The notes: generated from the sequence alone by a model not told the origin. Shown: positions 35 through 34,599, counted from the first letter of the stretch. The stretch: 64,000 nucleotides of DNA from Psammoneis japonica (GCA_008632985.1 QPGO01000039.1:248001-312000); one strand, 5' to 3'. Made by a program: numbers and translations.

Positions 35-490
35 CTACACCGAGTCTATGGTGGCAATACAGGCCAAGAATTTGCGCAATTCTTCAAGCTTGGGATTGGT
101 GCCTTTGCGGATTTTCCCGACCACGCGGTGTTTGCAAGGGAGCTGTACAATCGTTTGCAGATTCGAGGAGATGGTTTTTTGTTGTTTTCCGACGTGAAGG
201 GACAGTTTTAGTTCATCATCAGGAGCATTCGGCAGTAGCGGGCTAGAGATTGACAGCATGGCGCCGGATGCACCCCCAAAACGATAAGGCCACTTTGTCG
301 ATGGATTCAAAGAAATCATTAGTACTTGTAGCTCTACGGAAGCACGAAGAAGTTCAGGGGATTTAACGAGCACTTCGATACCCAAGCAAACCAGGGACGA
401 ATTTTTTGCGGCCTTTTCTTTTTTGACACAAGCGGCGAACTTGTCAAAGCAAAGTACTTGCGCTATAATATTGTAGAAGTTTGGTTACCC
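35..490 (-). CDS. Fragment of an uncharacterised gene, unmutated paralog of the decayed copy at ~2770-4870; structure uncertain
   Basis: Open frame NFYNIIAQVLCFDKFAAC...LRKFLACIATIDSV. Nucleotides 42-489 align by eye with 4416-4867. No clear start codon. Confidence 0.35.
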
Positions 491-1004
491 TCGTTTCAAA
501 TTGCATATCGAGGATGCTTGCACTTGTTAGTTACTACCTGGTATAGCTAGCTGACGCCTTGTAAAGGAGTCCGATTTTATTCAATCAGAACGATAGGGAC
601 GTGGCAGAGAGAAAGGAGGGATTGAAGCGCGCGACTTCAATGCCGATAGAGGGCTCTGGGCTATTGTTGCGACGCTCTCTAAGCTAGAAAGATGGAATAG
701 TTGACGATTCACATCTCTTCAAGGCAGGTTCTGTCTTCTATCCCGTTTTTCTGGGGCATTGAATACATAACTAGTGCCCTATTGATTTTCTAAACGAATC
801 TATACATTATCAATCTTCTTAGTGAATGTGTGTACAGTACTATCAATCTTCTAAAACAATGGAGATGTGCACTATCAATCCTCTAAAATGGATGGACCCA
901 AATTCCCTATTGGTTCGATGAAGATGGAACATTCCGGCATCTACGTCCAGGGGAAATTGTGCGTCCTCGGTGGGCCCATCATTGATGCCATTCAATGCTT
1001 ACGT

Positions 1005-2101
1005 TTAGTCACAGACCCACGCCGGTGCAAAGCAATAACTCCGAGTGGGAGTATCGTACGGTGGGTCGCAGCCTTTTTCGAACAGGATGTACTCGTCATC
1101 ATCAAGCTTGAGGCACCTAAGCCGCCTGGCACTACTTCTGGAGAGAACACAGTAATTGCATCCTGCGCTACCTCCACTGGTGCATTCATCCCAAGGGTCG
1201 CAAGTAGAGTCAGCAGAGATAGAAATATGGTAGTCGCCGCCAAGATCAGCTCCTGTGCTTTTGACATCAACAATGTAATCCGTAAAAGAGGCATGGTACT
1301 CCCCCAAAACAAGAAAGTAAGTGCCACCCAAATTGTCGACATCACCGTTCTTTTCGCCTGCGCCAAACGACAGCATGCTCTTTGTACCTTCGCCGCCATC
1401 ATCGTCCATCGCAATCAACTCGCCGAAAGGATTATACAAAGCAATCATAGTGTCGTCGATCTCAGACCAATAGGTGTCGATTTCGAGAAAGGTTTCAAAG
1501 GATGTCAAATAAATCGTGAAGAAAAGGACCTCATTAGGATCCAAATATCCTGAGTAATCCGATCCAATGCTGTTCACTCTGCCGAAATCATGCTCAATCG
1601 GCGGCAGCAGATTAGTGTCGGTATAGACCATAATGTGGTAGGTGCCGCCACTACCGGCTCCTTCGACTTCAAAGTTGTATTCATAAAAGGTGGTTCCATA
1701 CTCTCCCACCGCAAGGTAGTAAGCGCCAGCCGGAGGGACCGGTCCGTCGGAACCCGCGTAGGACTCCGGTCCATAAATGCCTTCACCGGAGCCAACGCCA
1801 AACGACAGTGTGCTCATCAAACCGCCTCCACATCGTCGTCCTCCGCAAGCAAATAACCATCTGAATCATACAGAGCAAGAAAAGTGTCGAAATCATGGTC
1901 AGCCTCGGTTGTAATGTCAAGATACGTTTCCTCGCCTGTCAAATATAACCCATACCAATGCACCTCGTTTGGCCTTAGAGAATCCTCATAGCTAAACCCG
2001 TATCCGATGTTAATAAAGGTATCTTCGACCTTCGGCTGTGCCTGAACTGCTGCCATTCCTGCAATGGAAGCGAGGAAAGCAAGAGATGTGCCAAGCTTCA
2101 T
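1005..2101 (-). CDS. Secreted protein with two PPC/DVUA0089-like beta domains and a Cys-rich tail; one frameshift at ~1830
   Basis: Signal peptide MKLGTSLAFLASIAGMAAVQA. Repeated motif D-T-x-[LI]-A-L-Y-x4-5-[LI]-A-x-D-D-D-G-G. Adding one G at ~1830 joins ORFs 1817-2122 and 1005-1820 as DDDGGGGLMSTLSFG, matching repeat 2 (DDDGGEGTKSMLSFG). Confidence 0.7.
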
Positions 2102-2771
2102 GGTGCTTGTCCTGCGTTGCAAAAAGGCAAATCGATATAGTTTTTAGTCAATGATCTCGTTGGTCCATTGCACAGTCTTGAACACACGTCGGAGAAATCC
2201 TGGCAGTACAGAGCCATAAGTACTTTCAAATAGTACAAGATGAAGCAAAAGGATAGGTCTTTCAATCGCAGATGAGGTCTTGGACTGCCGCTCTCAAGAC
2301 GATAGCGAAGTCCTGATGGTGCACAGAGTGTGTCACGGAACAATGCATACTTAATTTATAAGGAGAGTGTGGGGGGGAGGGGTTTCCCAGGTAACAGGGC
2401 ATTGTGGATAGATGCTCCAAATGATGGTCAACTCGAAGTGTGTTGGAGAGAGAGGAGTGGAAAGAAGAAAGAAGACAATGAAGCTCCACGTTACCAGCAA
2501 CACACCTCTACTGTATGTATCCAATACATAGAGTGGCCATATGAAACGAGTTTGCGCTCACCTTTATCGGAATTGTTGCTGTTGTCGTTGTTGTTGCAAT
2601 TACAGTGTTGTTGCTCAAGTAGTGTTTTGTGTTTTATGATCACGTGTTTTTTCTTTGCCGTCCAAACTCCAAACTCATACAAACTGGAGTGGTCTTGCTT
2701 TTGAACATTTGAAATAATCTCGACACGAGAATCTCTGTATTAAAAAACGCGAAAGCGTGTCAACTTGGGTG

Positions 2772-4870
2772 TCAACCCGACCCGAACCCCGAACGCATCC
2801 ATCGTGTCAACACCTCCTCATGGTGCTTGTTGTTGTTGTTGTGCTTTCTCTTCCTCTTCTTCCCGTACCAATTACAGACCTCCCAAGCCGGGAGTGGTTG
2901 TTGTGATAAGTGAGCGCCGTTCACTTCACCATCAGAAATTTCCGGGTTACTATACGTAGGTTCTACCTCACTTTTTGTACAGGCCCAACAGAATCTCTCG
3001 GAGACGCTTTGTCCGTCACCGCCGGAACCCGAAAGAAGGCGTAAGGAGAGAGGAGCCGCCTCGCTCTCTTCTTTTCCAGCAGTGCACTGTTGCACATCTT
3101 TGGCGCATTGCAAAAGCAGAGTGTGCAGCTGGCTGATCAAGCTGCTTTGCAGCCTTTTTCTCCTTTGTCAACTGGCAAAATGTCAAAAACTTTTTTGTCA
3201 TTGGCAGCATGGGTTTGCCCCCCAGGTGAGAAATTTTCAAACAACTCGTGAGATTTTCTGCGCGTGTCTGAGCACATGACCAGCACCAAATCTGTGCAAG
3301 AAAATTTGAGCTCCAAAACAAGGATTGTTTTCATGTGTTGCATCACAAAGCAGTGTGCTTGCCAAAAATGGCACTGTGCTGTGGCTCTCACCCATTGTCT
3401 GACAAGCTGTCGTCGTGACCAAGAGAAAAGGTGAGAGCATGCCAAGGCGGGTGAACGAGACTTGCTCTGCATGACAACTTTGTCAAAATTTTGAGCTTTG
3501 CTGTTGGTTGTGTCTTGTGCAGAGGTTTTTCACTTGTGGCATTTTTGACATCTCTTTGTCTGGTGGGGCTTTCTGCAAAATTTGTTGGCTTGGTTTTGAC
3601 TTGGTGCTGGTGTCTGCAACAAGAGCAGCGCAAGTTTTCTCGTGATGTCTCAGCACGGCTCTCATGTTGCATTGTTGGCACTTTGCACATCATTGTGGGC
3701 AACACTTTTGCCTTCACAGAGAGTCACTCAAACATGTCAAAATTTTTGGCGCCAGCAAAAGAGTGATTTTTTTTGCTCAGTTTTGAGGGCACAAGGCAAC
3801 CAAGAAGCTGCCAGACAGCTGCAACAGGTGTGACATTGCAAAGCACAACAATGAGATCAGCAACATGAAACATGGGTGCACAAGCAAAATTGGAGTTGAC
3901 CATTTCATCTTTGATGGGCATCCAGCTCCACTTAGAAGCCCCGCTTGCAAGTCTTGCAAGGGGTCCAAAACATCTGAGTGGTGTGACCATGTGTGTCAGA
4001 AACAGCTGGGGTCATTTTTGCAAATGAGCACAGCTCTTTTTTGTTCTTTGGCTTGGCAATCTGATCAACTTTTGTCTCAGCCTTACATCCAAAAGGCAAA
4101 ATGTGAACTTGTTTGGCACTTGCTTTGAGTCTCCCCGCCACATCTCAGATCTCATCTTGAGAATTTCATCAGCCAGTTTCTCAAAATGTTGTTTGAATGA
4201 CCTCTTTGTGATTGTTGGTGGGTTGTCTGTGTGCACGCACACAAAAGCCAAATCTTGGAACAGGTGTGTCTCATGCTTTCCCTGCAGAAAGTTTGAAGTG
4301 CACAGCCCAGCTCCCAGGATGACGTGTTGAGCCTCACATGTGGCAGCAACCCATGTTTGGTGTTTGGATCAAGCAAGGTTGCCCACTGAAGACCAGCACA
4401 TCCTGAGTCCTTGCAGAGTCTGTGGCAGCAATGCAGGAAAAAAGTTTGTGCAACTCTTCAAGCTTGGGACTGATGACACCTTTGCAGATGTTTTTGACCA
4501 CCAGTGTTTGCGTGAGAGCTGCACAATTGATCCTTTTTGCAGATTCAATGAGATGTCATTTGTTGTTTTCTGATGTGAAGGGACAATTTTAGCTCATCAG
4601 AACCACTCGACAGCACCGGGCTCAAGCTTGACAACATTCCGCTGCATGAACCCACAAAACGATGATGCCAATTTCTCGATTCAAAGAAAGCATTGCTTGC
4701 AGCTCAGCCGAAGCATGGACAAGTTTATGGGAGTTCATGAGCACTCACACAAGTGGCAAAAAAAAAAGAAAACAGTGAAAGTTTGTGCGGCCTGTCATTT
4801 TCTGACACAAGCGGCGACCTCATCAAGGCAAACTGCTTTTGCTGTAATTTTGTAGAAGTTTGTTACCTTG
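2772..4870 (-). pseudogene. Hypermutated, fragmented paralog of the gene at window start (block A)
   Basis: 4416-4867 is homologous to 42-489. Frames are broken and TA/CG are depleted from ~3080. Confidence 0.6.
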
Positions 4871-5049
4871 TACTTTCCCCTTCTCCCAGCGACTTGCGAC
4901 AATTGCATCCGTCGCGGGAGCTACTCAGATGCCAATAATCAGACACGAGAGACTATTCTCAGAGAATGACAACGCCACCAGAACATAAGAGACGCACATC
5001 GGAGCTAGCAAAATGAGAAGATTCTAAAACATTAATTTTTATGAATGAA

Positions 5050-8046: not shown

Positions 8047-10439
8047 TTATATACAACAGAACTTCTTTCGCAGCAGAGCAGGAAAAGCGAGACGTAAGCA
8101 AGGGAAGGGTGAAGGAGCAACAACAAGAAGTAGTTCAACCGACAAAGCGCCACGTCTCTTGTGACGGAAAAACTGAAGGGGTCTTGCGAACTTCTTTCGA
8201 ATTTAGTAGAAATGACTCCTTTCTAAGTACGATAAACAGGTCATTTATTGGATTCTTGAATGTAACAAAAGACATACTGTATGTACAGTAGTCTAAAAAG
8301 TACAGTATGAATGAAAATGACCCTCCACGTCAGCTTCTTTTACTTATGCTCTACTACGTCATAAACTGTTTGTGATGCTCACCCTGCGGCGGTGCTAGAG
8401 AGCTATCGCGCAAAAGGGACACGTGTGACGTCCAGCCCCGCCCTGCCGTGTCTCGCGTGCATCATGATGTGCCCATGTGGTTGTCAGAAAGGAGAGAAGT
8501 GAACAAACATGTTGCACCTGGCATAGTTCGCCTTCTCCAAGTGTTCTTTGTACACAAAGACTTGAGACTTGCTCTCATTTGGGGACCAGCCAGCAACAAC
8601 CTGCTCACAGCACAAAAACCCCCAATCTTCTTTGCTCTCCCTGCCGGCTCTTCCCACTCTTGCTCACTCAGCCAGCTTTTTCGTGGCTTGTTTTGTTGGG
8701 GCAACAATGCTGGCAAAAAGTCATCCAATGCCCCACTCTTTCTCACAAAAACAGTTTGAGGCCATTGGCCTCATGACTGTGCCTCTTGAAGCCAACAACC
8801 CCATGTGGAAAGCTGCAAAGCAAAGAACAAGAACGAGGAGGGCACATTGCCAGCACAAAAAGGCTGTGTGCACCAAGGCTGCGCTTCTTGTCTTCATGGC
8901 TTTGTTTTGCAAAATTTACAAAGATCAATGACCACAGACACAAGACACAAGAGAGCTCATTTTGTGATGCTAGCTTGCATCAGAAACAAGCACCACAAAA
9001 GCTGTCTGGTGTGTGCACTGGCCTTTCTTTGAGGAGCAAATGGGGCAAAAGCAAAAAAAAAAAAGAAAGCCACATGGGGGAGCAGAAGACAAAGCTGCAG
9101 AAAGCTGCAGAAAGCTGCACTCAAGATCATTTGGGGCAAACAATGTGCAACAAACACAGTCAACTCCTTGCCTTTGCTGTTCTCAGCACGCGCTGCACGG
9201 GGGCCAGCATCCAGAAGAGGCTGGCAGGGGGAAGTGCCTGGGGAGAGCTTGGGGCCAACACAAGCAACAGACAACAGCTGAGACTCTTGGTTTGGGAGTG
9301 GAGTTTGGCAGTGCAGATGGTTTGAAGAGGCAAGCTGTTTGCTCCTCTTGAGGTGCCCCCCTTCTTCTTGGCATTGGGGCGCACTTAAATCTGGCTGCAT
9401 TTCAGGTGGTTCTTCCCCACCAAATCATGGCCCTGAAGTTTCCAATGCAAAACACTGGCAAGAAAGAGAAAGTCAACAGGAATGAGGCAAAAGACAAAAC
9501 AGCATGAGTTGCAAAGAAACTGTGTGGGTGACAAATTTGCAAGCAGAGGCCTGCCGCCATGGCATGGAAAAGGAAGAAGGAAAAGCTGATGAAAGCAATT
9601 GAAATCTGCTGGTGATGGGGTCACCATTTGCACTTTAAGAAAATTTCAAGCTGTGCTGAGTGCAGAGTCTTTTGGCTGCAGCCCTGTGATGGAGAATTTC
9701 AAGAGCTGTGGCTGTGCACCAAGCACTGTGTCACAAGGGTGATTTGCTGATGTTGCTCTGCACTCCAGTGGGGCCTTGTCACACTGCATCTTCCACAACA
9801 TGGGAAGAACAGAAAGCTTGTTGACAACTGGGGCAAGAAAGACAAATGTGGGTCAAGATGCAGCAGAGCAGTTGACACTGTGCACACAGCAATCCACTGC
9901 ACCCCACTCCCAACTGGAAGGTCTGTCAGTTGTTTGGAAAGAGGAGAAGAGAACAAGCCACCCTGTGCCCACCCTGCTCCCAACTGGGAGGTCTGTTGGT
10001 TGCATGGAAAGAGAAAGAGAAGCCTGGGCCCATCAGATCACAGAGAGCCACTTGCCTGAGGCACAAGCCATTGCAGCTGCAATGGGCTCAGAGCATCCTG
10101 TGCTGGTCGTTGTGGCACGTTGTTGCCTTTGACCTTGTGAACAGCTGATCCCCACAATTTCTTGTGCAAAACAAGCCTTTTTGAAAATGATGCACTGTGG
10201 CGGCAATCTTTTTGTCAAGCTGTGCACTGATGAAAAAGCAGTGCGTCATGGCATGGCTGTGCTCTTGAGAGTCTCATTGCCCACACAACACCATCATCAT
10301 GCAAAGTCATTTCTAGAATTTGGACGCCAACAATGGACGAGTCATCCCAGGAATTTTGGTCTTGTGTGCTGTGTGGCATCACTTCATGGTTTGAAGCTGT
10401 TTCTAGAATGCAATCAAAATGCAGACATGATTGGGAAGA

Positions 10440-12950
10440 GGTCAAAAGGAAGTTGTCTCATGGTGTGCAGCTGTTGGGTGCATTGAGGAACGGCTCATGA
10501 TGCTTGTCAAAAATCATTGCTTCAATTGTTGCAACATCCGTGGTGCCCCAGCAGTTTTCCCTTGCATCCATTGCCGCACCATTGCAACCCGATGGAAGCA
10601 TGACCGCAAGTTTTCCCGTGTTGAGAAAGGAATTTCCCAAACAACAGTCGTGGCACCACCTGGAGTGCTCCAATTTGTCACCCACATGTCTTTGTGTTCA
10701 GGCAAGCTCAAGCCTCACGAGCGACTCTTGAGTCGATTCCATCAAATGCACACATCTGCATCTGCATGGCCAACCAAAAAGCCAGCTGCAGCCATTGGCA
10801 AAGATGTTGTGCTCAATGCAAACATCCCATTTGGAGCACCAGATGCAAGAGCATTCAGAGAGATTGGACAACACTGAGTTGCAAAACAAAAAGCAGGCAG
10901 GTCCTGAATTGCCAGCAGCCGGCCAGAAGGCTCATCCATTGGTGATTGCACAGAGCTGCAAATCAACAAAGGTGGTGGAAGGAGCACTGGCTGACAAGAA
11001 AAAGGAAGAATGTCCTTGACCGTCAAAGGTGATTGGCTGGGTGTCCGTTCTGTGTGCCTTGACTGTGCCATGCACCAGAAACATCTCATCCCACTCGTCC
11101 ATGCCCGCGCCAAATGCTTGTGCTCCAGGCTTGATCGTCAGTGTCACTCCTTGCAGGATCTGCACTTTTTGTGTCAAATGATGTGGACTTTTGCTCAAAG
11201 GCCAGACTGTGTCAGAGGAGAGAATGTCGCCCACAACCAGTGCAGGAGTCATTGGCCGCATCGTCGGACCAGACGTCATGCCATCCATCAACAACCCAGG
11301 AACCTTTCTGTCTGGCTGCACCAGGAAAGGCTCAAACAGGACGCAGCCAGCTGTGTGGCTGTGTCATCATTTTTGTCCCAAATCTTGGAGTGAACAGTTG
11401 ATGCATTCATGGTGCCCCAGCAGTTTTGCCGTGCATCCACTGCCACCCCTTCACAACCCAATGGAAGTGCAACAGCAAGTTTTCCCATGTCAAGAAAGGA
11501 ATTTCCCAAAACAACAGTCGCGGCACCATCCGGAGCATTCCAATTCATTGTGCACATGTCTTTGTGTTCAGCCAAGCCTCAAGAGCAACTCTTGAATCGA
11601 CTCCATTGAATGTGTGTGCCTGCATCTGCATGGCCAACCAACAAACCAGCTGCGTTGGCAAAGATGTTGCATGCACTCAATGTCAATGTCCCATTTGGGA
11701 TGCCAGATGTGAGAGCATTTGGAGAGATTGGACAATGCTGAGTTGCAAAGAAAAAAGCAGCCAGAAGGCTCGTCCGTTGGTGATTGCACAGTGCTGCAGG
11801 TCAACAAAGGTGGTGGAAGGAGCACTGGCTGATGAGAAAAAGGATGAAAGCCCTTGGCCATCAAAGGTGATTGGCCAGGCTTCCGTTCTGTGTGCCTTGA
11901 CTGTGCCATGCACCAAAAACAACTCACCATGGTTGTCCAGCTTGGTGCCAAGTGCTTGCACTCCAGGCTTGATTGTCAGTGTCACTCCTTGTGGGATCTG
12001 AGCTTTCTGCAACAGACAACATAGACTTTTGCTCACAGCCCACATTGTGTCTGACAAAATCACACCACCTGCTGTTGTTCCTTGTTGAGGTGGTGCAGGC
12101 TCTGGTGCAGGATGCACCAATGAAGGTCCGGGTGCAGCCTTTGTTGGTTGAGGAGTCGGCGGCATTGTTGTTGGAGAAGGAGTCAGTTCAGGAGTTGGAG
12201 GCATTGTTGTCAGAGAAGGAGTTGCTTGTGGAGTTGGTTGCACTGTTGTTGGAGAAGGAGTCGGTTCAGGCATTGGCGGCATTGTCATCAGAGAAGGAGT
12301 TGCTTCTGGGCTTGGCTGCGTTGTTGTCAGAGAAGGAGTTGCTTCTGGAGTTGGCTCAAGAGTCATCTTGCCAACAGAAGACAGAACTGTTGGCTGCATT
12401 GTTGCCAAAACAGGAGTCGCTTCTGGTGTTGGGGGCAGAGATGTTTGTCCTGTGGAGAGCAGTTTGGTTTGTCGGTTTGTCTGTTGTTGCAGCTGGGACA
12501 GAAGTGCTCAGGGCAAGATTTGGCTCATCTGTTGGCGCATTTGAGGTGCCAGGACAGTCAGAGATGAGGTGCCAGGCTCCTCTGTTGCACCTTCAAATCA
12601 ACCGGATCAATTGGGGGAGAAGTTGACCCAGAGCTGTTGGCAGGTGCCAGACAAAAACTCTCCATTGCCACTTTGGAAGAGCAGAGCACCAATGACAGTG
12701 CCCAAAAGCAGGAAAGTTCCAGTGCCAGTGGCAAAGGCAATCCACTTCCATTTCCCACATTTGCGTTGTTCCAGAGATTTGTCTTCCCCAGGTGGTGTCA
12801 TCTCAACTGCCTCAGCTTCTTGCACCAATTGGGCAGTGACTTGAATGTCTGTGCTTTCTTGAATTGGAGCATTGTCTGGTCATTGTTGGGTTGTGAACAC
12901 TGTAAAATCCCCTTTGCCGTCAAGTCCACCATCCCAACAAGCACCAGGGC
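10440..12950 (-). pseudogene. Decayed membrane-anchored surface protein: TM segment, Pro/Thr repeats, two tandem beta-helix-associated domains
   Basis: TM WIAFATGTGTFLLLGTVIGALLF and a PTPSPT repeat tract. Two copies of ILSDTxW..SKS....QK.QI.QGVTLTIKPG...FLVHGTVKAH.T...PITFDG. Many frameshifts and stops. Confidence 0.65.
12161..12360. repeat. 39-bp (13-codon) tandem repeat encoding Pro/Thr-rich linker, ~5 units
   Basis: Units such as ggcattgttgttggagaaggagtcagttcaggagttgga and ggcattgttgtcagagaaggagttgcttgtggagttggt. Confidence 0.8.
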
Positions 12951-14711
12951 ACTGCTCTTTCTCCTCCATTGCACTCAGAGACACAGGTTGATGAGTTGGT
13001 CATGGGTTCTCAATGCTGCAGTTTGTGTGGCTTGCTTCTTGGTGGCAAGAAGTCCATTTCTTCTTGTGTTTTGCAACCTTTTCCTTTTCAAGAGAGCTGC
13101 TGGCATTTGCTTCCAAATCGGGAAACACAGATGCAAAATCGCCGTGATCAGGGTCACTTGGGCAAAATGTGTCACGATCAAACTTTTCATGGCTCCGTTT
13201 CATGTGGCTGCGTGAAGATCGGTGCACTTCCTTCTTGTGGTGATGATGGTCATGTCTCTCCTCTTTCTTCACAGATGGCAACCTTGATTGTGGAACAGGC
13301 TGAAATTGCTGCCAATGACACTGGACTTGGCGCTAAGACACGTGCAAATGATGGATCGTTCATGTGGGCACCGGGTGCACAGGGCACTTGCAGTTCAGAC
13401 GATCCTGGCCAAAGCAAGCAGTGCACAGGCGGTCTCCACACTGCACTGCACAGCATGAGCAGCCACCTGGTGTTTGGTCCTTCTTCACAGAGACAAGATT
13501 TGAAGATGAAGATGAAAGGGAGGAGAGAGCCTCTCTTGCACCTGGCAAAAAAAGTGTCTCTTTCAACTGCTCTTTGCACAGTCTTGTTTGGCACATGTGC
13601 CACACCAGCTTGCAAAAAAAAAAAGTGTGCAGAGGCCAGCAAAGAGCAGCTCCTTGTGTGCAGAATTCCACAGGCCCATGCCATGCATGACCCAACCTGG
13701 GACTGGAGTGTGTCTGTTTCCCCCCAAAGCCCTTCACTTTTTTGAGATGGCTTTGTCGTGGCGCAACGTGCTTGATTGAGCACATCAAGCTTGTTTCTTT
13801 CTGGCAAAAAGACATTGTGAGGCTGGTGGTGGCCTCAGAGGTGCCTTCATCTCCAGGTTAGTCCTCATGCCCCATGCTGCATTGTGAGACATCAGAGCTT
13901 TTTTTGTCATGGTGTGCCACATGATTTGCTCTGACATTTCTGTGTGCTCTCTTCTGCAGTTTTTCACCATCTTCCTTGTTTTCTTGCATTGGGGCAAAGG
14001 CTTTTGGTGCCTCAAACCTGCCAGAGAACAAAAGCACCCAGGCAAACTGGAAATGATGTGCTTTGGGTGAGGAGGAGACATCTGCACATTTGAAAAATCA
14101 TCTCTTTTTTTCTGCTGGTGATCGGTGATCACCCACGCCAGCATGGCTGTCTCAAGGAGCAGCTTTGCTGCAGAGCCTGTGTGCAGCAGAGTTCTGTGTC
14201 ACTGATGCCACATGCAGTGCAGGGCTGGTGCATCCTCTGTGCAGCAGCAGTGTGCACCCACACCAGTGGCCAGTGGCTGGCAGCTCACAGAGTCAGTCAG
14301 TCCAAGAGCACACAACAAGAGTGTGCAGCATTCGTGCCAAGGCTGTGCTGCTCATGGCTTTTCTCTTGCCAAATTGCTGCCTTGATTCTTTCATGCTGGC
14401 TGGCAGCAGGGGGGCAAGGAAGAAGGTTGTGTGTTCATTTTGGGAGCATCAGCACATGAGAGTTCCAGATGGCACAAGATGAAGCTGCCTCTCTGGGGGG
14501 GCTCCTGCTGGCACTGGGCTCAAGGCCACAAAACAACCATGGTTGTCACTTTCTCACTTTTCCAGCATTGTTGGAACAGGAACATTGATCACTGTGACTA
14601 GATCACACTCCAAGACTCCTGTGCATTCTGACACCAAGTCACGTTTTTGTGGTTGGTCACACGGAAAAATTCAAGTCAGAAGCACAAAAAACATGCCAGA
14701 GCCTGTGCCAC

Positions 14712-14872
14712 CAGTGGCGTAGAATGGTTCAGGGTGTGCACAAATTTTGCACCACAGTGGCGCATGTGATTTTTATGCAAGTTTCCACATGCGCCCAGTG
14801 GCGTAGACCCAGTGCAAAAGCAACAAATTTTTGAAGTTTTGTGGCGTACAAAGTCAGTGTGTTGTGGCGTAG
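14712..14872 (+). repeat. Array of five (CA)GTGGCGTA motifs, probable transposon subterminal repeats
   Basis: GTGGCG starts at 14714, 14757, 14798, 14841 and 14864. Confidence 0.55.
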
Positions 14873-16291
14873 ATTCGACATCAACAAGGCTTTGCGCAAC
14901 ACTCGCAACAACCAAGACACGCTCGCAAAATCTCGCTCCCACTTTTTCACACGTTGCAGCTGATGTGGTGTTGTTCATTCGTCTCACTCGTTTTCTCATC
15001 GTGGAACCTCCTGATGACACAGGGTGTCTTTCAGGCATGTGCATCGGTCTGATTGCCCCCCCTCTTTGGGCAAGAATGGGGTGTGTGGTTTGCTTCTTGA
15101 AGACACCAGACCAGCCACAAGGAGCTTGCAGTGGAGAGCTGGCAAGCAAAGCACTGGGCTGCGCCACAAGGCACTGGCTGATGGGACAGCATTGGGCAAG
15201 CACAACCACAAGCATTTTCCTGAGGGCACTTTGCACCACATGTGACAAAGCCAGAAACACGGACTGAAAAACACAGACAGAGCCAGGTTTTGCTCAACTG
15301 GCCACCCAGAATTCAAGCAGGGAGGGTGCAGCCGGAATGAAGAAGGCTGCAGGTCAATTTGAGGTCCCAGTGGGAACTTGCTTTGCATGTTTGTTGACAG
15401 CCTGCTGCAGAAGCCATGGCTGCACTGGAAATCCACAAAGGTGGCAGTGCGTGATGGGGTGGATCTCGCAAATTCTCTCAAGATTTTGTGATGCATGAGG
15501 CCAAAATTTGGGCGCAGCATCCACAGATGCTTTGGGAGAGATGCTGTGAATTTGTCAAGGCAGGCACTTCTGAAAGCATGGGTGGGGAAGGCCAGTGCTT
15601 GCTGCCAGGGATCTTTGTGAAAATCTTTTGAAGAGGATGACACTGCGTCTTCTTGATTGGAAACTTCAGAGAATTGTTTGAACACAGTGGGGCCAAACCC
15701 GCCAAAGTGTGCATTGAATTTTGGAGAACAAAGAAGACACAGATCCGCAGCAGTGGTGGCCACAAAGCTGGCAGGGCAAGGCTTGGAAAACAGGCTGCCC
15801 AAAAAGCCATGATGGGCTGGCAGCAAAACACTCCTCACAAAAGGTGCCACACAACTCCACAGTTCTCCAGCGTGCTGTGGGAGCTTTGCTGTCAAGCATG
15901 TAAAACCACAGCACCTCAAGTCACAGACAAGCTGCTTTGCAGGCAGAAGCCCAGCCAAGGGCCGCAAGTTGACAGCCCTGCAACATCTTCCCTTTTTCTC
16001 CTTTTTCCTTCTTTTCCTCTCTCTCTTCTCCTTTTTCTCCTTTTCAGTTTATTCTTCTGGGCCGCCTCCGGCGGCCACCTCTTTCATTCTTCCCACATGC
16101 CGAAATCTCGTCACAGGTGGGATCCCAGGACGCCAAGCAAATCGGACGGCGGCACTTGTTGGAACGCACATTCGATCCGCGCGATTGGCCCCTGCGCGGC
16201 GGCTTGCATGAAGAATCGATCATCAGCGGTCCCAGATTTTTCGACACACGATGGGGTGGATACCTAGTAGAAAGGGACTCTAAGAAGAAAA

Positions 16292-17908
16292 ATGGAGACG
16301 GGGGAATCTCTTCAACCTGGTGAAGTTAATGTTTCCGATTTTTCTTTGTACAAAGATTTGAGACTTCTTCTTGGAGGTGCGAGTTGGTGAAAAAATCATA
16401 AGCAAATTCCCTTTAGGTTTGCACCGCCTCATTCATTCATTCATTCATTCATTCGGTGCTTCTGTCAATTTTTAGGTTCAATCTTGATTTATGGTATTGC
16501 GGACCTCAGGGAGTTGGCACGAAAAGGCGATGTTTTTGAAGAGTCAACTGCAAACGAAATCCTCACCATTGGCAGTGAAAGCAAGCACGATCAGTTCTAC
16601 TTTGATGTGTTTGAGCAGCACAAAGACAAGGTTTTGAAACACATTGGTTCAAGAGGAACGGAATTGTACTTGGGGTCCATTGATGATGTACGCGAAGAAG
16701 CCGAAGCCGCAAGAGCTGCAGCTGCTACCCTTGAAGTGTTCGAGGACGAAAATAACACAAGTGAATGCGTGTATGCAATCGTAATGGATCGGTGAGTTGT
16801 ATGATTGTTTGCTTTACCTCCATGTTTGTGCTATCTACTTGTATGTCTCTCAATGTGTCGATGATTGATTCGCCACGGTAATTACAAGCTTTTCCAAGCG
16901 GATCGTCGTGTATTTTCGTGGATCAGGTGAGTTCCACAATGTCTACAACTAAGGATAATGTTATGACGGACGCCCTATGCTTCGACAGTCCACCACACTA
17001 ATTCTTTGTGATATGCCGCTCGTAGCAACACCACACGATTGGATGATTGACGCAACAATGACACTTAAGACTATCCCAAACCCTGTACCATCGATAGAGA
17101 AGGAGAATTGAAGATACATGGAGGTTTCCATCAATACCTTTACGGTACAACGTCAGACAGAAAGATGAGTAAATTCGACAAAATCATGGGCGAGGTTGTT
17201 GAGCTGCTACAGGAAAACCCTGGTTATCGCCTCGTTTCCGCAGGCCACAGCCTTGGTGGAGCCTTGAGTATTCTCTTTGCCTTTTCCGCAGCCGCGTCGT
17301 CGAACCCCCTCATTCCGAGCCGGTTTTGTCTGTTAGCTTTGGATCTCCTCGCGTCGGCAATGATAAATTCCGTGATGCTGTGGAGGTAAGTGTTATAACA
17401 TGGAGTCCAACCATGCGCTATGAAAGAGGTTATGTTTTTTACGAATGCATTCTAATCCTGTGATTGTTAAACCTACAAGGTGCTGGAGAAGCAACACAAA
17501 TTAGTCGTCCTCCGAGTGGCAAATCAAGGCGATCCGATCACCAATATGCCCAACGCGACAACTTTAATGTTCGGTTATCGAGTGATTCCATCTCTAAACT
17601 TTCGTCACGTGGGTCTAGAGCTCAAGCTCCGAAAAGGCAGCCCACCCTCCTTTATTCATTCTACATCGGCAGGCTCCTCGGGGATGAAGCGGACCATGAA
17701 AGACATGTACCATGATTTTCGTGATACCATTCGTTTCTTCATTTGTCCTTGTTGTGGTCGAGGATCTCCAACCTGTCATCTCTGCGGTGAATACGTCAAG
17801 CGCTTGAACGGCGAGGCCAAGAAGGATTTGAAAACCATGAGTCTGAATACTCTCAGGAGCAAAATACTCAAGAAAGAAATAGACTACAGGGAATCGATTT
17901 GTAGATAA
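16292..17908 (+). CDS. Class 3 (fungal-type) lipase, 5 exons, two apparent 1-bp frameshifts
   Basis: Motifs VYFRGS, IHGGF, GHSLGGA, FGSPRVGN (shifted frame), RVANQGDPI, FRHVG. GT-AG introns at 16377-16475, ~16792-16888, ~16927-17025, 17386-17479. Confidence 0.8.
16430..16454. repeat. (CATT)n microsatellite in lipase intron 1
   Basis: cattcattcattcattcattcattc. Confidence 0.9.
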
Positions 17909-19039: not shown

Positions 19040-20000
19040 TCCCATTCACTTCCAACTGCGACGATGTCCAAGAATTGTAAATGCCCAACTGCATGGACAA
19101 GCTCTTGAGGGTTGAATTCATCCAATGTCGGCATTGAAGCATTGTTGCACAATGCCATCCAGAAAAGGTGGTGCTGAGTGTCCACCAGCAAGCAGCAGCC
19201 AACAACAAGTGTTCGGTCGGAGGTTTTGGCTCGCCAATTTCTGTGCTGGTTTGTCAGTGGCAGAGTCAAAAACCAAGGGCTTGAGGACCAAGCTCATCCA
19301 ATTTTTGAGCTGTGTGCAGCATGAAGAAGGGTGCTTGAGAGTGCTGCAATGGCAAGGGCTTGGAGGGTCAAACCCACCCAAGGCCCCAGTTGATGATCTC
19401 TGGCCATGGCATCAAAAAGAAACTGGAAGATGTCATTTGAACCCATCCATTTTTTGTTGGCTGATGTCAAAAAGCAGTTGGTGCAGCACCCAACAGCAGG
19501 AAGCACCTGTGCTGCACCTGTGGGTGCAAGGTGTTGGGGGCGGAACTTGCCCCATTTTGTTGAAGCCACATCGTCAAAAAGAGACAGCAATGGATGGCGT
19601 CCTGTTTTTGCAAACAACTGCAGGTCACTCAAAACAACAGAAAGACAAATGTCCAGCAGTGGCAAGAAAGACCCAAACAACATTGGCAGTTTTTGGGCAC
19701 ACCAAGTGACCCATTGTTGGAGCCAGTGTGCCACAGATCAGCACACCAAAAACTCTTTAAGTGTGCACCTCAGCTTTGCAAAAGCCTGCACAGTCTCTTT
19801 GGTGCATTTGCCAGAGCAGCAAGGAGACATTGCACTTTGCTCTGATGATGATCCACTGAGCTCCTCCACACTGTCCCAAACATCTGGTCCAAAATCCATC
19901 CTTCCAACATTTGTCAACCTTGCAAAGCTGTTTGCAACTGAGCCTGGCTGCTGTGGTGGAAAAATGCCTGCAACTTGTGCAGGATGTTGCAGCAATTTTG
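19040..20000 (-). pseudogene. Decayed helical-repeat (RAP-domain/OPR-like) protein gene in hypermutated block C
   Basis: Recurrent F-x-P-Q-x-L motifs across broken frames: KFRPQHLA, LDEFGPQAL, LDEFNPQEL; LFD..A motifs precede some of them. Confidence 0.45.
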
Positions 20001-20389
20001 TTGCGCCATTGTTGCTTTTTTGCTGCTTGGTGAGTTCACATTGCAGTGATCTGATGTGCCCAACAAAGCATGGTGTGTCCTTTGGGCTCATTTTGTTGCC
20101 ACAGCTGTCACACATGGCAAACACTTCATTTGCTCTGTCGGCAGTGCAAAAATTGGTTGGCCTCCAGCAGTGGGGTTGTTGTTGGTGTGATGTCATGTGT
20201 TGGCAAGCTCCTGTCTCATGGACCAGAGGATTGCTTTTAATGATGAGCATTTGGCTGCGAATGATCCATCTGCGTTTGATGCAAACCTGACAATCATGGT
20301 GTGTGCTAACACAAAAGACTGCAGAGCCTTCATCCTGCAGTTTGCACATGCTCTGCATGCCCTTCTTCATGAAGAAGAGACATTCAATG

Positions 20390-20735
20390 CATGTGCATGG
20401 CCCAAAGGTGTTGCAAAAGCTTGAGGGTCCTTCATGGTGAAGGTCAGGTCATCCACATGTGCTGCCATGCATTCACTGTGGTCACCGTTCTGTTGCAACC
20501 AGATTTCGGGTTCGGCGCCCACGGCAAGGGAAGAAACCTTCGGCACGCAAACAATTGGCAAAGCATTCATGCCACCTGAGGCTGGAGCTGCAGAGTCTGT
20601 GTGGGGCCTTGTGGATGACAAGGATGTGTCCTTCCAGCTCACCAAATTTGGGGCCTGCTGCAATGTACAGTTTCTCCTTGGTTGTAGATTCGCATTGGGC
20701 ATTGCCAATGTCGGTTGCCCACAGTCCCAGCTTCC
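20390..20735 (-). mobile_element. Ty1/Copia (CoDi-like) reverse transcriptase fragment, decayed
   Basis: LWATDIGNA..ESTTKEKLYIAAGPKFGELEGHILVIHKA and AEPEIWL..NGDH.EC...HVDDL (YVDD changed to HVDD). Confidence 0.85.
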
Positions 20736-24593: not shown

Positions 24594-25820
24594 TCATCTT
24601 TTGTCGTCTTGGAGCATTTTCTCTGCCCATATCGGTACGGGCAAGTTTAATGCAACATAATCTAAAGAAACATATTCCAGGACACGCCTTACAGTTTCAG
24701 CTGTGTAATATTCTTGCACCCTTGTCGCGGCTCTCGTCTCTACCCCAACATTGTTTCCTAATGCCACTTTACCAAGGTTTCCATTCAAATCAAAAACCTC
24801 GGATACTTGTGGCAATATGTTATAGCGCATTCCCACGGCTTGGACTTGTTGATAGAAATCGGCTCCCATGAATCCTACAAAGTCGTACATTGCCGAATCA
24901 TGGATATCGCGGTACAGCCCGTTGCAAAACAAACCCATGGGAATGAAATGCATATTCCATCGCAGAGGCATGGTGTCTACATAGGCTTGAAAGAAGCGTT
25001 TCGGATCTCTTGTAATGTCTCTTGAGTTTTGTTGGTTTTGAAATACAAAACTTGGCTCGCAGTGACGTTCGGAATGAAATTTTTCACCAACACACTTGTC
25101 CAAAAATGCCGAAAGAAACCGTTCCAATGGGTCTCGGACAAAGACAAACCGACGTGGCTTGGCGAGTGTTGTGTCGTTCACAACTCGTTGCTCTCCTTGC
25201 ATTGCTTTCTTTGATTCTTTACGACATCCAGTGACGGTTGGATTGGAATTTGGATCTAATCGACAAAAGAGTTTGCGCCATTGGGTTGTCGCGACCTTGC
25301 CCATGGTGCAAAGTTCCAATTGCTGATGCGACGAATGCAAAACATGCCAAGGAGCAAAGACACCATTCCTCACATCCAACGAATCCCTCAACAATGTATG
25401 GAACCACCAAGGATAGTCATAATTGTCGGTATTGTTGTACAAATCTTGGAGACACTTGCGCAACGGAGTGTGGCGCGGACAATCAGTTTGCAGTTTGCCG
25501 TAAGTCCTTTCAAACGATCGATACACAATTTCTTGCGCCCGAGTGATGTTCGCTTCTTTTCGATACTCACTTCGATCTATTATAGCATCGCTCATTGTCC
25601 TTTCTTTCAACGATTCTTCTTGTCGCGAGTTGTCGTCACACTGACAGGTCGACAACCAAGAGATGGACGTGCGTATCTGTACCAGCAAGACCAGAAAACA
25701 ACACCCAAAGCCAAAAATAAGAATGAAAAATCGCATTGACTTTGTCTTTTGTTTCCAGAGACGGCTTTGCACCGGCGTCACCATATTAGAACGCATAAAG
25801 AGACCAGCAGTGTGGTTCAT
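24594..25820 (-). CDS. Carbohydrate sulfotransferase (Sulfotransfer_2 family), type II membrane protein
   Basis: PAPS-binding motifs CTMGKVATTQW and FVFVRDPLERFLSAFLDKC, plus an N-terminal TM. Confidence 0.85.
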   Translation of the reverse strand: MNHTAGLFMRSNMVTPVQSRLWKQKTKSMRFFILIFGFGCCFLVLLVQIRTSISWLSTCQCDDNSRQEESLKERTMSDAIIDRSEYRKEANITRAQEIVYRSFERTYGKLQTDCPRHTPLRKCLQDLYNNTDNYDYPWWFHTLLRDSLDVRNGVFAPWHVLHSSHQQLELCTMGKVATTQWRKLFCRLDPNSNPTVTGCRKESKKAMQGEQRVVNDTTLAKPRRFVFVRDPLERFLSAFLDKCVGEKFHSERHCEPSFVFQNQQNSRDITRDPKRFFQAYVDTMPLRWNMHFIPMGLFCNGLYRDIHDSAMYDFVGFMGADFYQQVQAVGMRYNILPQVSEVFDLNGNLGKVALGNNVGVETRAATRVQEYYTAETVRRVLEYVSLDYVALNLPVPIWAEKMLQDDKR

Positions 25821-26114: not shown

Positions 26115-27179
26115 ATGGTTGTTGAACGTGGGGATCTCACAAGAGCAGTCGAGGATGCCAATGTCGAACTGGTGAAGGAGCTCCTCCAGTCTTGCAACAG
26201 TCAGAAGGCCGTCGACGACACTGACAGCAAGAAAAACCGTACACGTACAGCCTTTATGGCAGCTGCCAGAGGCAATGGGTACGGGGGCCCCGATTTTGGC
26301 AAGATTCTACGTCTCATATGGTCGAGATACAAAGAACTTCGTTGTAACCTCAACCATATTCTCACTCAAGAAGGTGGTCAAAGATACCGGAGTTGGACTG
26401 TTTTGATGCATTCTGCTAGATGTGGCGATGCTGACAACCTCGGGATTGTTCTCGGCTTCTACGAGGAGGTCTTTGGTTTGAATCTCGCCGCAACTCCGGT
26501 GAAGGACATGGTCGACCTTGTTGATGTGGACAGCAAGGTGAAGGCGATCGTCACAGATAGATTTTTTCCGGGTCTTGAAGTAATTTCGAATTATGAAGGA
26601 AGGTCACGGCGCACGACATCACGCCGCCTAGCTACTGCTTCTTCAGTTTCTCTTGTGACACCAAGCAGGAAAAGAGAAAAGAGGGACGGCTCACCGTCTC
26701 GTCCTGCTGCATCTCGTCCCAACAAAACCCGATCCAGGGTTGTGCAGACGTCTCCCCTTCCGACACGTGCTTCCAGGGAGGGTGCTTCGCTAGCAACATC
26801 AATTGAGGACCATGCAACCTCGAGAGCAAAAGAGAATGTAAGAAAAGCAGCCCCCGCCCAGATGGAGGACGAAAGAAAACCTGCTGCTCGGGTTGCCGTC
26901 AAGTCGGAAGAAACATCGGAAGAAACATCTCATCCTGCTGGCTCATTTGATGGTGATGGAGCATCAGCAGAGCAAGTAACTTCTGCTCCAGCAGTGGCCG
27001 CTGGTGCTCCAGGAACCGTGTTGACATTGCTTGGAGAACTCGAACAGATAGTTGGAGGCGATGGAGGCGGCGTTACCATCCTGGATAGGCTGAATCGCCT
27101 GGATGTCTTATTCTTCAGTTCACCACAAGCAGGTTCGATTCCAGAGAGAATCCAGCGATTGAAGAGGCTGATAGGTTAG
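26115..27179 (+). CDS. Hypothetical protein with ankyrin-like N-terminus and low-complexity middle region
   Basis: LTRAVEDANVELVKELL, TAFMAAARG, TVLMHSARCG. Intact 355-aa frame from ATG 26115 (upstream ATG at 26022 also possible). Confidence 0.65.
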   Translation: MVVERGDLTRAVEDANVELVKELLQSCNSQKAVDDTDSKKNRTRTAFMAAARGNGYGGPDFGKILRLIWSRYKELRCNLNHILTQEGGQRYRSWTVLMHSARCGDADNLGIVLGFYEEVFGLNLAATPVKDMVDLVDVDSKVKAIVTDRFFPGLEVISNYEGRSRRTTSRRLATASSVSLVTPSRKREKRDGSPSRPAASRPNKTRSRVVQTSPLPTRASREGASLATSIEDHATSRAKENVRKAAPAQMEDERKPAARVAVKSEETSEETSHPAGSFDGDGASAEQVTSAPAVAAGAPGTVLTLLGELEQIVGGDGGGVTILDRLNRLDVLFFSSPQAGSIPERIQRLKRLIG

Positions 27180-30692: not shown

Positions 30693-32080
30693 GTTGGAGT
30701 TATAATCACGAGAGAGAAACTCTCAGAATAATAGAACAACGACCACAATGACTTCCAACAACGATCGATCGAAACGTGTGTTGTGGTCGGTGGTGGTTGA
30801 GTTTTATTTGCTTCCACGCGTCGTGACATACGTACAGATTAAAGTGCGTGAATGCGCATGTAGATTTCTACGACGAATGGATACGAAACGTTTGTCTGTT
30901 TATCTGTTCAACGGCTTGATTTCGCACGCGTCGTCTCCACTGTCTGCGCACCACTGATTGTCTCCTCTGAGCACACCAACCACCACCACCAACAGAATCT
31001 CTTGTTTTTTTTTTGCAGAAAACAGAGAAGCAAAAAACACAATTCGATTGGTGTGTGTTTTTATGGAATTGGAACAAAAGGACATGATTCTGAATGGCAC
31101 AAAAGGGTTGTCATGGGGGTGTCATGTGTGTGTGTGTCAAGAACAACCTCTTTTGGGGGGGGGGGGAGCTCAGAGCATTTTGCACTGGGCACGCACTCCT
31201 CTCACAGTAAACGCAAGCATTGTTTTTGCTGTTTTTGCGCACTTTTGATTTTTCAATGATGGGGGAGTTTTGCTGCTGGTGCATTTCTTTCCTGCACATG
31301 CCTGTTTCTTCTTCTGTGTGTGTGCAGTGCTTTGTGCCAGCTTGTGCGCGCCACTCTTTTCCATTTTTTTCTTGCCACGTGGTGCTGTCTTGCACACACG
31401 TGCATGCACAGTCTTTTCTTTTTCTTCTTTTGGTCAGAGCACTAAAAAACCATCAAATTGCTTGAGAAAATGGCCTTGGCAGTCTTTTGATTTGGCTTTT
31501 TTTGGGGGGGGAGCTTCCTGCCCGCCAAGCAGTGCACTCTTTTTTGTGCCGGGTCCCGACACTCCACATGCCACAAAACAGTTCTGTGGAAAGAAAACAG
31601 CTGTGCAGCCACCCAGCTCCCAAAAGTCAGGAGGCACAGGCAAGAAACACCGACTTTGACCAGGTGCTCTCAACGCATGCATGTGCTGATGTCATTGCAC
31701 CAAGGGTCATGCAACAACACATGCATGGTGCTGCGCCTTCTTGCAAAATTGCCACAGGCAACAGCAGACAGCAACATGCAGCGCCGCTGTCTGTGTTGTG
31801 GACATTGCATTTGCTCATCATCTCGCTTTCATCGATTGTCTCGAGTCTCTCTGGAGTGTCCCAACATCTCACACAATGAGCTCTCTGCATCTTGCTGTGA
31901 AACAAATCTTGGAGGAACAGGTGGAACAGCCATTGTCTCCTCTGAACATGAAACAGAAAGCTGCAACAAAGGCACTGGGGAAGAGTCGTTGTCCGCAGAA
32001 TAAAGCCAAGAGTTCTGCCTCATGCAGCAAGGAAGACCCCACGCCACCACCAGCAGCACCACCTAAGCAGAAACATGTGA

Positions 32081-34560: not shown

Positions 34561-34599
34561 GAGGAGTCATCACAACAGATGTCAATCTTGAACATCAAT

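Follow-up and report, generated by a model that had tools for sequence, protein, structure and literature searches.

Two diverged copies of a repeat lie 4.4 kb apart on one contig of the diatom Psammoneis japonica, and one of them, copy 2, reads TG or CA at many of the sites where the other, copy 1, reads TA or CG. Copy 2 stands at the end of one of six blocks, within the 64,000-nt window that we analysed (GCA_008632985.1, QPGO01000039.1:248001-312000; the window is this whole stretch, and all positions are counted within it), in which TA is nearly absent. With a little better than even confidence, we favour the explanation that copy 2 lies in a sharply bounded domain in which a TpA mutator and CpG decay have both gone near to completion, that copy 1 lies outside it, and that the domain itself triggers the change.

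A repeat pair with one-sided change at TA and CG

An earlier note on this DNA had aligned positions 42-489 with 4416-4867, and the alignment is real: 342 of 467 columns are identical (blastn E 9.25e-71), with 91 substitutions and with 34 gap columns that make up 10 indels. With a single symbol standing for every pyrimidine-purine step, the alignment widens to 18-494/4390-4871 (77.6% of 499), indicating that the homology of copy 1 runs toward the left edge of the window, beyond which it probably extends. The features of this pair, and of a second pair of the same kind, are as follows.

18-494 (core 42-489), plus strand: copy 1 of the repeat, of normal composition, with 19 TA and 24 CG in its 448-bp core.
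4390-4871 (core 4416-4867), plus strand: copy 2 of the repeat, which closes block A on the right; it has 5 TA and 10 CG and differs from copy 1 by the 10 indels.
4589-4592: TTAG kept in copy 2 (partner 208-211 in copy 1), of the resistant YTAR class.
43548-43793, plus strand: normal partner of the second pair, with 13 TA and 18 CG versus 0 TA and 3 CG in the copy in block F.

Forward changes, in which copy 1 has TA or CG and copy 2 has TG or CA, number 22 (TA>TG 6, TA>CA 3, CG>TG 9, CG>CA 4), versus two in the reverse direction (CA>TA 1, CA>CG 1; binomial p 3.6e-5), and the balance of TA and CG gains and losses between the copies is therefore clearly asymmetric. All ten changes that the earlier note had listed are present in the alignment, those from TA at copy-1 positions 47, 58, 146, 329 and 464 and those from CG at 75, 108, 152, 190, 193 and 345, as is the TTAG that it had found in both copies (209 in copy 1, 4590 in copy 2). 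Copy 2 has lost 14 TAs, nine of them by a clean change to TG or CA and five by different changes or gaps, and 13 of the 21 aligned CGs of copy 1 read TG or CA in copy 2. Conversion is uneven along the copy: between 4416 and 4590 all three TAs and all eight aligned CGs are converted, four TAs and seven CGs are kept between 4590 and 4867, and across 4600-4845 conversion fades gradually through a half-converted state. In a control comparison of two paralogs of normal composition (1177-1538 versus 1579-1972) the changes are symmetric, 6 versus 10, and the second pair of a normal and a block copy (43548-43793/50955-51165) has 12 forward changes and no reverse ones.

The outcomes at the nine converted TAs follow one another along copy 2 as TG, TG, CA, CA, TG, TG, CA, TG, TG. 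This intermixing of TG and CA indicates that both strands were hit and speaks against an origin in one edited strand of RNA. A search of copy 2 for strand-coordinated clusters gave no sign of any (5 runs among the 9 sites, about the chance number).

The pair had been described as a before/after pair of which only one copy is hit. The asymmetry that this implies is present, but the pair is old and noisy rather than clean: only 25 of the 91 substitutions are exchanges between TA or CG and TG or CA (23 forward, 2 reverse), the others being 42 transversions and 24 other transitions, and to these the indels must be added. Copy 2 is best explained as an old, dead, pseudogene-like duplicate. Inside the window copy 1 is indeed normal in TA and CG; that it escaped altogether is not established, since its homology leaves the window on the left, where the copy 1 element may itself be mutated.

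Six depleted blocks and the flanks of surviving TAs

Block A is one of six blocks in the window, with normal genes between them.

About 2979-4844: TA-depleted zone of block A, 1.9 kb, with 5 TA versus 73 expected (Poisson P 2e-25) if, as our expected counts assume, the blocks formerly had the composition of the remaining window.
About 3105-4600: CG-depleted zone of block A, with 16 CG versus 81 expected, nested within the TA-depleted zone.
8551-16050: block B, TA 2.4/kb and CG 14/kb, containing a tandem pair (10468-11216/11348-12054).
19078-20666: block C, TA 2.5/kb and CG 11/kb.
31062-37277: block D, TA 3.7/kb and CG 26/kb.
40809-43507: block E, TA 4.4/kb and CG 32/kb.
50229-53388: block F, TA 2.8/kb and CG 22/kb, containing 50955-51165, the mutated partner of 43548-43793.

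TA density in blocks B to F is thus 2.4-4.4/kb versus 39.3/kb outside (block TA is about 7% of the outside density), and block CG is 11-32/kb versus 54/kb outside. The deficit is made good by the products of transition: the blocks lose about 72 TA plus CG per kb and gain about 68 TG plus CA per kb, block A having 109 TG and 106 CA per kb versus 70 and 77 outside. G+C is unchanged, at 0.45-0.53 within and outside the blocks, and five of the six have TG and CA at nearly the same density. Most of the blocks' TA edges are sharp, the transition taking about 100 bp or less, and at most edges the CG-depleted zone is nested in the TA-depleted zone, a difference in footprint that points to two processes.

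The evidence on the direction of change comes from the window itself, with no outgroup entering into it, and the earlier note's reading of it, that copy 2 would be the copy that lost TA and CG, is well supported. Beside the shortage of TA throughout block A and the 12:0 count in the second pair, the tandem copies within block B show 24 sites at which one has TG and the other CA, versus 113 concordant TG or CA sites; such double mismatches need an ancestor with TA or CG that each copy resolved independently. A precedent for loss in this direction exists in Bigelowiella natans (see below).

Surviving TAs in the blocks number 69, of which 2 are RTAY, 28 mixed and 39 YTAR sites. Relative to the outside density, survival is 0.7% for RTAY, 5.9% for mixed and 29% for YTAR sites (chi-square 88.8, p 5e-20), and a per-strand model fits the mixed class (0.084 x 0.54 = 0.046, versus 0.059 observed). 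The same preference appears between copies 1 and 2, where TG or CA replaced none of four YTAR, four of six RTAY and five of nine mixed sites, four of the five converted mixed sites having changed in the predicted direction. That survivors are mainly YTAR fits a target of the form T-A-pyrimidine.

In the mechanism that we favour, a TpA-specific A:T>G:C mutator would turn TA into TG or CA according to which strand's A is struck, preferring an A that has a pyrimidine on its 3' side (T-A-Y), and ordinary CpG decay, of somewhat narrower footprint, would turn CG into TG or CA. Copy 1 would lie in no such domain, as far as the window extends, and would have kept its TA and CG. Location in a silenced domain, and not the presence of a homologous partner, would be the trigger; that copy 1 is unconverted within the window, 4.4 kb from the converted copy 2, argues for location and against homology in this role. 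What is observed is the asymmetry between copies, the arrangement in blocks, the balance of losses and gains and the preference for certain flanks; the polarity, an action at the level of DNA and the role of the domain as its trigger are what we infer. Diatom transposons carry CpG methylation, and the CG half of the pattern resembles decay of methylated CpG in that CG has become TG or CA in silent blocks (13 of 21 sites in the pair, and the low CG density of all the blocks, in DNA that is putatively silenced). Such decay would explain the CG half only; the TA half is more complete, reaches further and needs another process.

The duplicate and the rival explanations

Copy 1 is spanned by a single frame.

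35-484, minus strand: open frame of 149 codons from stop to stop across copy 1, with its first Met at codon 56, ending in TAG.

A frame of this length arose in 2 of 2000 shuffles, and copy 2 is interrupted in each of its three minus-strand frames. The proposal that a local gene duplicate, and not an obvious transposable element (TE), was the target is plausible in that the frame is open in copy 1 and broken in copy 2 and that a TE domain was not found, but no family match bears it out: Pfam gave nothing for the copy-1 frame even at E<=10. Nor did any of 89 block frames of at least 110 aa match Pfam at E<=1e-3, and no viral or TE domain was recognisable among them. The further suggestion that selection preserved one copy finds no support, the 68 differences outside the hypermutation classes falling on codon positions 1, 2 and 3 as 25, 20 and 23.

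Searches for homologous proteins with the copy-1 frame, at near and longer lengths, found no outgroup. Among metagenome contigs, 163 stretches match a peptide pattern, none of them a relative by tblastn, and a DNA pattern of two conserved motifs had 0 matches. A phmmer search of 1.84 billion representatives returned a single match, a 2880-aa bacterial protein of repeats of about 42 aa (E 3.9e-10 summed over 8 stretches, only 1e-4 per stretch by BLASTP), which we rejected as an assignment; it offers a weak hint that the frame may encode one helical repeat unit. An Argonaute N/L1/PAZ assignment from the top clusters of the ESM Atlas (0.86) was likewise rejected, being below the 0.9 line, with low recognition and without confirmation from Pfam. 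The AlphaFold2 model of the frame from a single sequence (pLDDT 40.6) was too poor for a fold search.

TA depletion in block A stops on the right at about 4845, 22 bp short of where the homology ends (4867). This near coincidence would also fit a process whose limits are those of the repeat or element itself, or the arrival of a copy already mutated. The first of these would resemble RIP, a fungal, premeiotic process of C:G to T:A change, chiefly at CpA, that creates TpA, lowers G+C and mutates both copies of a duplicate. As in Neurospora and other ascomycetes, dense transitions with a dinucleotide preference would here have killed duplicated or foreign DNA within sharp limits. In contrast to RIP, TpA is destroyed, G+C does not fall, and one partner is untouched within the window in both pairs, copy 1 running off its edge. 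The earlier note was right to call the case unlike RIP, the polarity being opposite and an unmutated copy lying so near the mutated one. A RIP-like trigger could nevertheless have exposed both copies if copy 1 is clean because it is an unmutated tail, or because selection purged its mutated alleles, and the homology that reaches the left edge of the window and the open frame that copy 1 retains are in keeping with this, as is the position of the TA edge. However, copy 1 is normal in the window despite having at least 450 bp in common with copy 2, the second pair too has an untouched partner, and the codon positions carry no signal of selection. Moreover, depth in run X1 gives no sign of high copy number in block A, with bins of 67-88 over 3336-4669 versus about 30 per single-haplotype contig. 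We consider a trigger of this kind unlikely. In the same run, part of block B is high-copy (depth up to 1261).

Alternatively, copy 2 might have arrived already mutated, alone or with the rest of block A, for example as the reverse transcript of an RNA that an ADAR-like enzyme had edited, or as an element mutated at a former locus. ADAR edits RNA, and a genomic footprint of it needs reverse transcription and marks one strand only; ADARs are known as metazoan proteins. Hyperediting by ADAR shares with the changes seen here A>G at sites with a 5' T or U neighbour, and the near coincidence of block edge and homology end, together with a 5' T preference that equals the 5' U preference named for ADAR in the available text of a recent preprint (10.64898/2026.01.13.699255), would fit such an origin. 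Arguing against it, the six TG and three CA outcomes in copy 2 are intermixed, and TG and CA are close to equal over the blocks, so that both strands are changed where one edited RNA strand would give one outcome; the CG-depleted zone is narrower and occupies the middle of the block, as decay in situ would leave it; and the gradual fading over 4600-4845 leaves no abrupt insertion joint. An arrival in mutated form appears quite improbable.

The reverse polarity, in which an ancestor poor in TA and CG gave rise to a copy 1 that gained them from TG and CA, can draw on the fact that a 22:2 asymmetry gives by itself no direction without an outgroup. It would require a process that makes both CpG and TpA, contrary to the usual mutation biases, and it is at odds with the composition of copy 1, which is that of the remaining window, with a TA-free state that reaches 1.4 kb past the pair, with the 24 double mismatches in block B, which require a TA or CG ancestor, and with the presence of the open frame in the TA-bearing copy. 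We regard it as very improbable.

An artefact of sequencing or assembly, such as systematic miscalling of modified bases in silent chromatin, is scarcely credible given that 42 transversions and 10 indels separate the copies, neither of which TA miscalling makes, and that k-mer contigs of run X1 (depth about 30 per haplotype) agree with the assembly, with no other letter, over 4041-5021, 9113-10992, 11886-14597 and 19152-19940 (blocks A, B and C), although X1 may be the sample behind the assembly of the window, in which case the match is not independent support. One of these contigs (record 3, 4041-5021) reproduces copy 2 with 0 other letters and 1 gap and another (record 1, 200-1761) reproduces copy 1 from 200 with 0 other letters, which excludes a slip of assembly or polishing. 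A further X1 contig joins 4866 to 559, and a contig of another run, X2, follows copy 1 as far as 404 and then continues. We note that the contigs of X2, which behave like spliced RNA, leave most of blocks A, B and C without cover, an absence that proves nothing.

Relation to Bigelowiella natans and implications

That genomes can be defended by targeted hypermutation is textbook knowledge for fungi (RIP) and for the APOBEC enzymes of animals. For a TpA-specific A:T>G:C form, the sole description to date is a 2026 preprint on a chlorarachniophyte, and a literature search for TpA loss in diatom DNA, with most subscription journals outside its coverage, found no report. In mutation-accumulation lines of that species, B. 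natans, 231 of 302 new mutations fell in two integrated viral regions, and those in viral regions were nearly all A>G or T>C, all of these on TpA (10.64898/2026.01.13.699255). The targets are integrated giant-virus and virophage DNA, and the preprint proposes an adenine deaminase, ADAT/TadA-like, acting on DNA (Mettrop et al., bioRxiv 10.64898/2026.01.13.699255).

On the available text of the preprint, the two cases agree in the change of TpA to TpG or CpA on both strands, in its restriction to discrete regions, and in the long-term depletion of TpA and enrichment of CpA and TpG there, the clusters containing few annotated genes. The window supplies the corresponding evidence in the 9 of 14 lost TAs and the matching gain of TG and CA in the blocks, and in six blocks set beside normal DNA. 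They differ in the host, a chlorarachniophyte there and a diatom, a stramenopile, here; in degree, with a Rho of 0.45 reported for the viral region versus near-complete erasure here; and in the targets, which there are viral, whereas here no viral or TE domain was recognised and a gene-like duplicate is among them. CpG loss of narrower footprint accompanies the change here, whereas the main text of the preprint, in its available part, contains no mention of CpG; the 3' pyrimidine preference seen here has no counterpart in the discussion there, within the same limits; and de novo events were observed in B. natans, whereas the evidence here is a genomic footprint.

By analogy with B. natans, we conjecture that the enzyme would be an ADAT/TadA-like adenine deaminase acting on DNA. 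Whether diatoms have a DNA mutator directed by chromatin domains, one that is probably an adenine deaminase aimed at T-A-pyrimidine, converts almost all TpAs in a silenced domain to TpG or CpA, runs beside CpG decay but reaches further, and needs no homology, is in our view an evenly balanced question. If they do, the same kind of defence would occur in two distant supergroups, Rhizaria and stramenopiles, and a near-saturated footprint in a diatom would point to a system that is widespread, or has evolved repeatedly, in ecologically dominant algae. Half-converted edges such as 4600-4845 and 37000-37500 would then be places to catch the mutator in action, and the resistant sites, TTAG included, which obey the flank rule, could be used as a fingerprint of the enzyme. 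The composition of the blocks also matters for genome annotation: without TAA and TAG stops and Tyr codons, they are stretches in which gene finders will call long false frames.

Six TA-poor blocks in diatom nuclear DNA

The window is nuclear diatom DNA. The named best matches of a coproporphyrinogen oxidase frame (61590–62942, minus strand) are diatom proteins only (64–70% identity), and ordinary eukaryotic genes, including Sec63/DnaJ, CNNM and sulfotransferase, lie between six blocks that we defined by a 500-bp dinucleotide scan together with a list of long TA-free gaps.

Block A, about 2979–4844, TA-poor block
Block B, 8551–16050, TA-poor block
Block C, 19078–20666, TA-poor block
Block D, 31062–37277, TA-poor block
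Block E, 40809–43507, TA-poor block
Block F, 50229–53388, TA-poor block

Within the blocks TA is nearly gone, CG is lowered and TG and CA are raised, with G+C the same as outside. TA density is 2.4–4.4 per kb compared with 39.3 outside, CG density is 11–32 per kb compared with 54 outside, and the loss of TA plus CG (~72 per kb) is offset by a gain of TG plus CA of ~68 per kb. Block A (1.9 kb) contains 5 TA where 73 are expected (Poisson P = 2e-25). We note intermediate TA depletion (observed/expected 0.15–0.34) outside the blocks at 25001–25500, 26501–27000, 29501–30000 and 37000–37500; these stretches may have been converted in part, or may reflect normal coding bias.

Contigs from sequencing run X1 (k-mer depth ~30 per haplotype) show no other letter and one gap relative to the assembly over 4041–5021, and also agree with it over 200–1761 and across extended parts of blocks B and C. 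An error in assembly or polishing is thereby ruled out, but X1 may come from the assembly's source sample, so the agreement is not independent confirmation.

Direction of change between paired copies

Copy 1 (42–489, normal composition) and copy 2 (4416–4867, right end of block A) align with 342 of 467 columns identical, 91 substitutions and 10 indels (blastn E = 9e-71). When pyrimidine-purine steps are collapsed to one symbol the alignment grows to 18–494 against 4390–4871, so that homology reaches the window's left edge, past which it probably continues. All of the TA and CG changes listed in the earlier note are found in the alignment, as is the TTAG it described as common to both copies (209 and 4590). 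Copy 1 has 19 TA and 24 CG, copy 2 has 5 and 10; the forward change, or signature (TA or CG in copy 1, TG or CA in copy 2), occurs at 22 aligned pyrimidine-purine steps and the reverse at 2 (binomial p = 3.6e-5), whereas control paralogs of normal composition (1177–1538 and 1579–1972) are symmetric (6 versus 10). The proposal that these copies form a before/after pair thus stands as regards directional asymmetry, but the pair is of only moderate quality, with 25 of 91 substitutions of this kind in either direction (23 forward, 2 reverse). The remaining substitutions are 42 transversions and 24 other transitions, so the duplication is old (~15% background divergence, plus indels); miscalling of TA cannot produce 42 transversions and 10 indels.

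Conversion is uneven along copy 2. From 4416 to 4590, 3/3 TA and 8/8 aligned CG are converted, and from 4590 to 4867 six TA are converted, four kept and five otherwise changed, with five CG converted and seven kept; the three TAs closest to the right end of the repeat in copy 2 (4845, 4853 and 4864) are intact. Copy 2 therefore spans the right edge of block A, where conversion fades out.

Four observations agree in suggesting that change in copy 2 ran from TA or CG to TG or CA. The TA-free state covers the entire 1.9-kb block A, so that TA loss is a property of the block and not of the repeat alone. A second pair, normal 43548–43793 and 50955–51165 in block F (158/256 identical), shows 12 forward and 0 reverse changes, with 13 versus 0 TA and 18 versus 3 CG. 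Tandem copies within block B (10468–11216 and 11348–12054) have 24 TG/CA double mismatches versus 113 concordant sites; these TG-versus-CA differences are what would arise if each copy had resolved an ancestral TA or CG on its own, and are not expected of ordinary divergence. In mutation-accumulation lines of Bigelowiella natans, as described in the main text of a preprint, TpA>TpG/CpA has been seen arising (10.64898/2026.01.13.699255). TA-bearing copy 1 has an open 149-codon frame, a length reached in 2 of 2000 shuffles, and every frame of copy 2 is interrupted. The stretch 43548–43793 starts ~40 bp to the right of block E and contains many GTAC palindromes.

The copy 1 frame, which may belong to a gene or to a transposon, gave no family in a Pfam search, no relatives in word-indexed protein searches, one weak match, at the level of a repeat unit, to a repeat protein from bacteria and an unusable predicted structure; an Argonaute-N/PAZ lead (Atlas) was unconfirmed. 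The earlier suggestion that selection preserved one copy finds no support, as the 68 non-signature differences are spread evenly over codon positions (25/20/23) and give no sign that copy 1 has been under selection since the two copies separated.

One X1 contig, whose depth of 28 corresponds to about one haplotype, runs from the end of copy 2 (4866) into 559 with four letters in between. It represents either a third copy that neighbours a paralog of the sequence right of copy 1, or 559–4866 duplicated in tandem on the other haplotype. Over 668–4002 the depth of X1 is 88–125, with 274 at 2669–3335, exceeding the diploid level of ~55. A contig from a second run, X2, follows copy 1 over 1–404 and then continues for 65 letters that by eye resemble a diverged 405–436; it is probably a third paralog, which would serve as an outgroup. 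The minus-strand gene at 855–2143 encodes an internally duplicated protein (1177–1538 and 1579–1972) with a signal peptide and only a weak hint of a PPC domain (Pfam), and higher-depth contigs of diverged paralogs map to it in X1 as well as in X2.

Strands, flanking bases and the CG footprint

TA>TG and TA>CA are one change, A:T>G:C, viewed from opposite strands. In copy 2 the outcomes (TG 6, CA 3) are intermixed and across the blocks TG is about equal to CA, so the mutations struck both DNA strands, which argues against a single edited RNA strand copied back to DNA. The 69 surviving block TAs are nonrandom by flanking purine (R) or pyrimidine (Y) (chi-square 88.8, p = 5e-20).

Surviving TA sites in the blocks, with survival as a share of the density outside them
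RTAY, 2 survivors, 0.7%
Mixed, 28 survivors, 5.9%
YTAR, 39 survivors, 29%

A simple per-strand model fits, with survival of 0.084 for A before a pyrimidine and 0.54 for A before a purine, and predicts 0.046 for the mixed class versus 0.059 observed. Copy 1 sites turned to TG or CA in copy 2 are 0/4 YTAR, 4/6 RTAY and 5/9 mixed, with 4/5 converted mixed sites in the direction that the flank rule predicts, so the pair follows the rule as well; the TTAG retained in copies 1 and 2 is of the resistant YTAR type.

On the right side of block A, depletion of CG ends near 4600 and that of TA near 4845, and at most edges of the blocks CG loss has the narrower footprint, nested within that of TA. Either TA erasure extends further than CG loss or it saturates earlier. 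CG recovers 100–800 bp before TA at edges such as 2979–3105, 4600–4845, 16050–16250, 36477–37277 and 42707–43507. On the simplest reading, CG loss would be ordinary decay of putatively methylated CpG. As a conjecture, the candidate enzyme for TA would be an adenine deaminase of the ADAT/TadA-like type with activity on DNA, which would fit the T-A context; the preprint's main text proposes such an enzyme for B. natans (10.64898/2026.01.13.699255).

Trigger, closest parallel and targets

Within the window, copy 1 and 43548–43793 are untouched though each has a converted partner, so homology alone does not seem, from these sequences, to be a sufficient trigger. In RIP, as generally known, homology as such suffices, and the earlier note's contrast with RIP holds for these partners. 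We lean towards a domain-based trigger. Two observations leave room for its rivals, in that the homology extends only 22 bp past block A's TA edge and copy 1 runs off the window's left edge; if the body of copy 1 were converted, the claim that only one copy was hit would fall, leaving two copies with edges at different offsets.

As far as the preprint's main text describes it, the closest known case is TpA hypermutation in B. natans (10.64898/2026.01.13.699255), which shares the dinucleotide, the direction and the regional confinement. In the present window the host is a diatom, nearly all TA has been erased from the blocks, no target is recognisably viral, TA loss is accompanied by loss of CpG and a 3′-pyrimidine preference is visible. 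The main text mentions neither diatoms nor CpG and leaves the 3′ neighbour undiscussed; the supplementary mutation table may bear on the latter. A literature search for a report of the phenomenon in diatoms found none.

Among 89 block frames of the window, none has a TE or viral domain. Block B contains seven tandem copies of a 39-bp unit (12104–12432). Over its right end (14008–16675) summed X1 contig depth is 417–1261 versus ~55 for diploid single-copy DNA, with many indel variants and several loose contig ends near 16109; this end looks like a dispersed repeat family. To the right of block B, at 16790–17478, X2 (labelled 'DNA?') skips three stretches of 94–99 nt with GT..AG ends, and so behaves like spliced RNA, the skipped stretches marking three short introns of a gene there.
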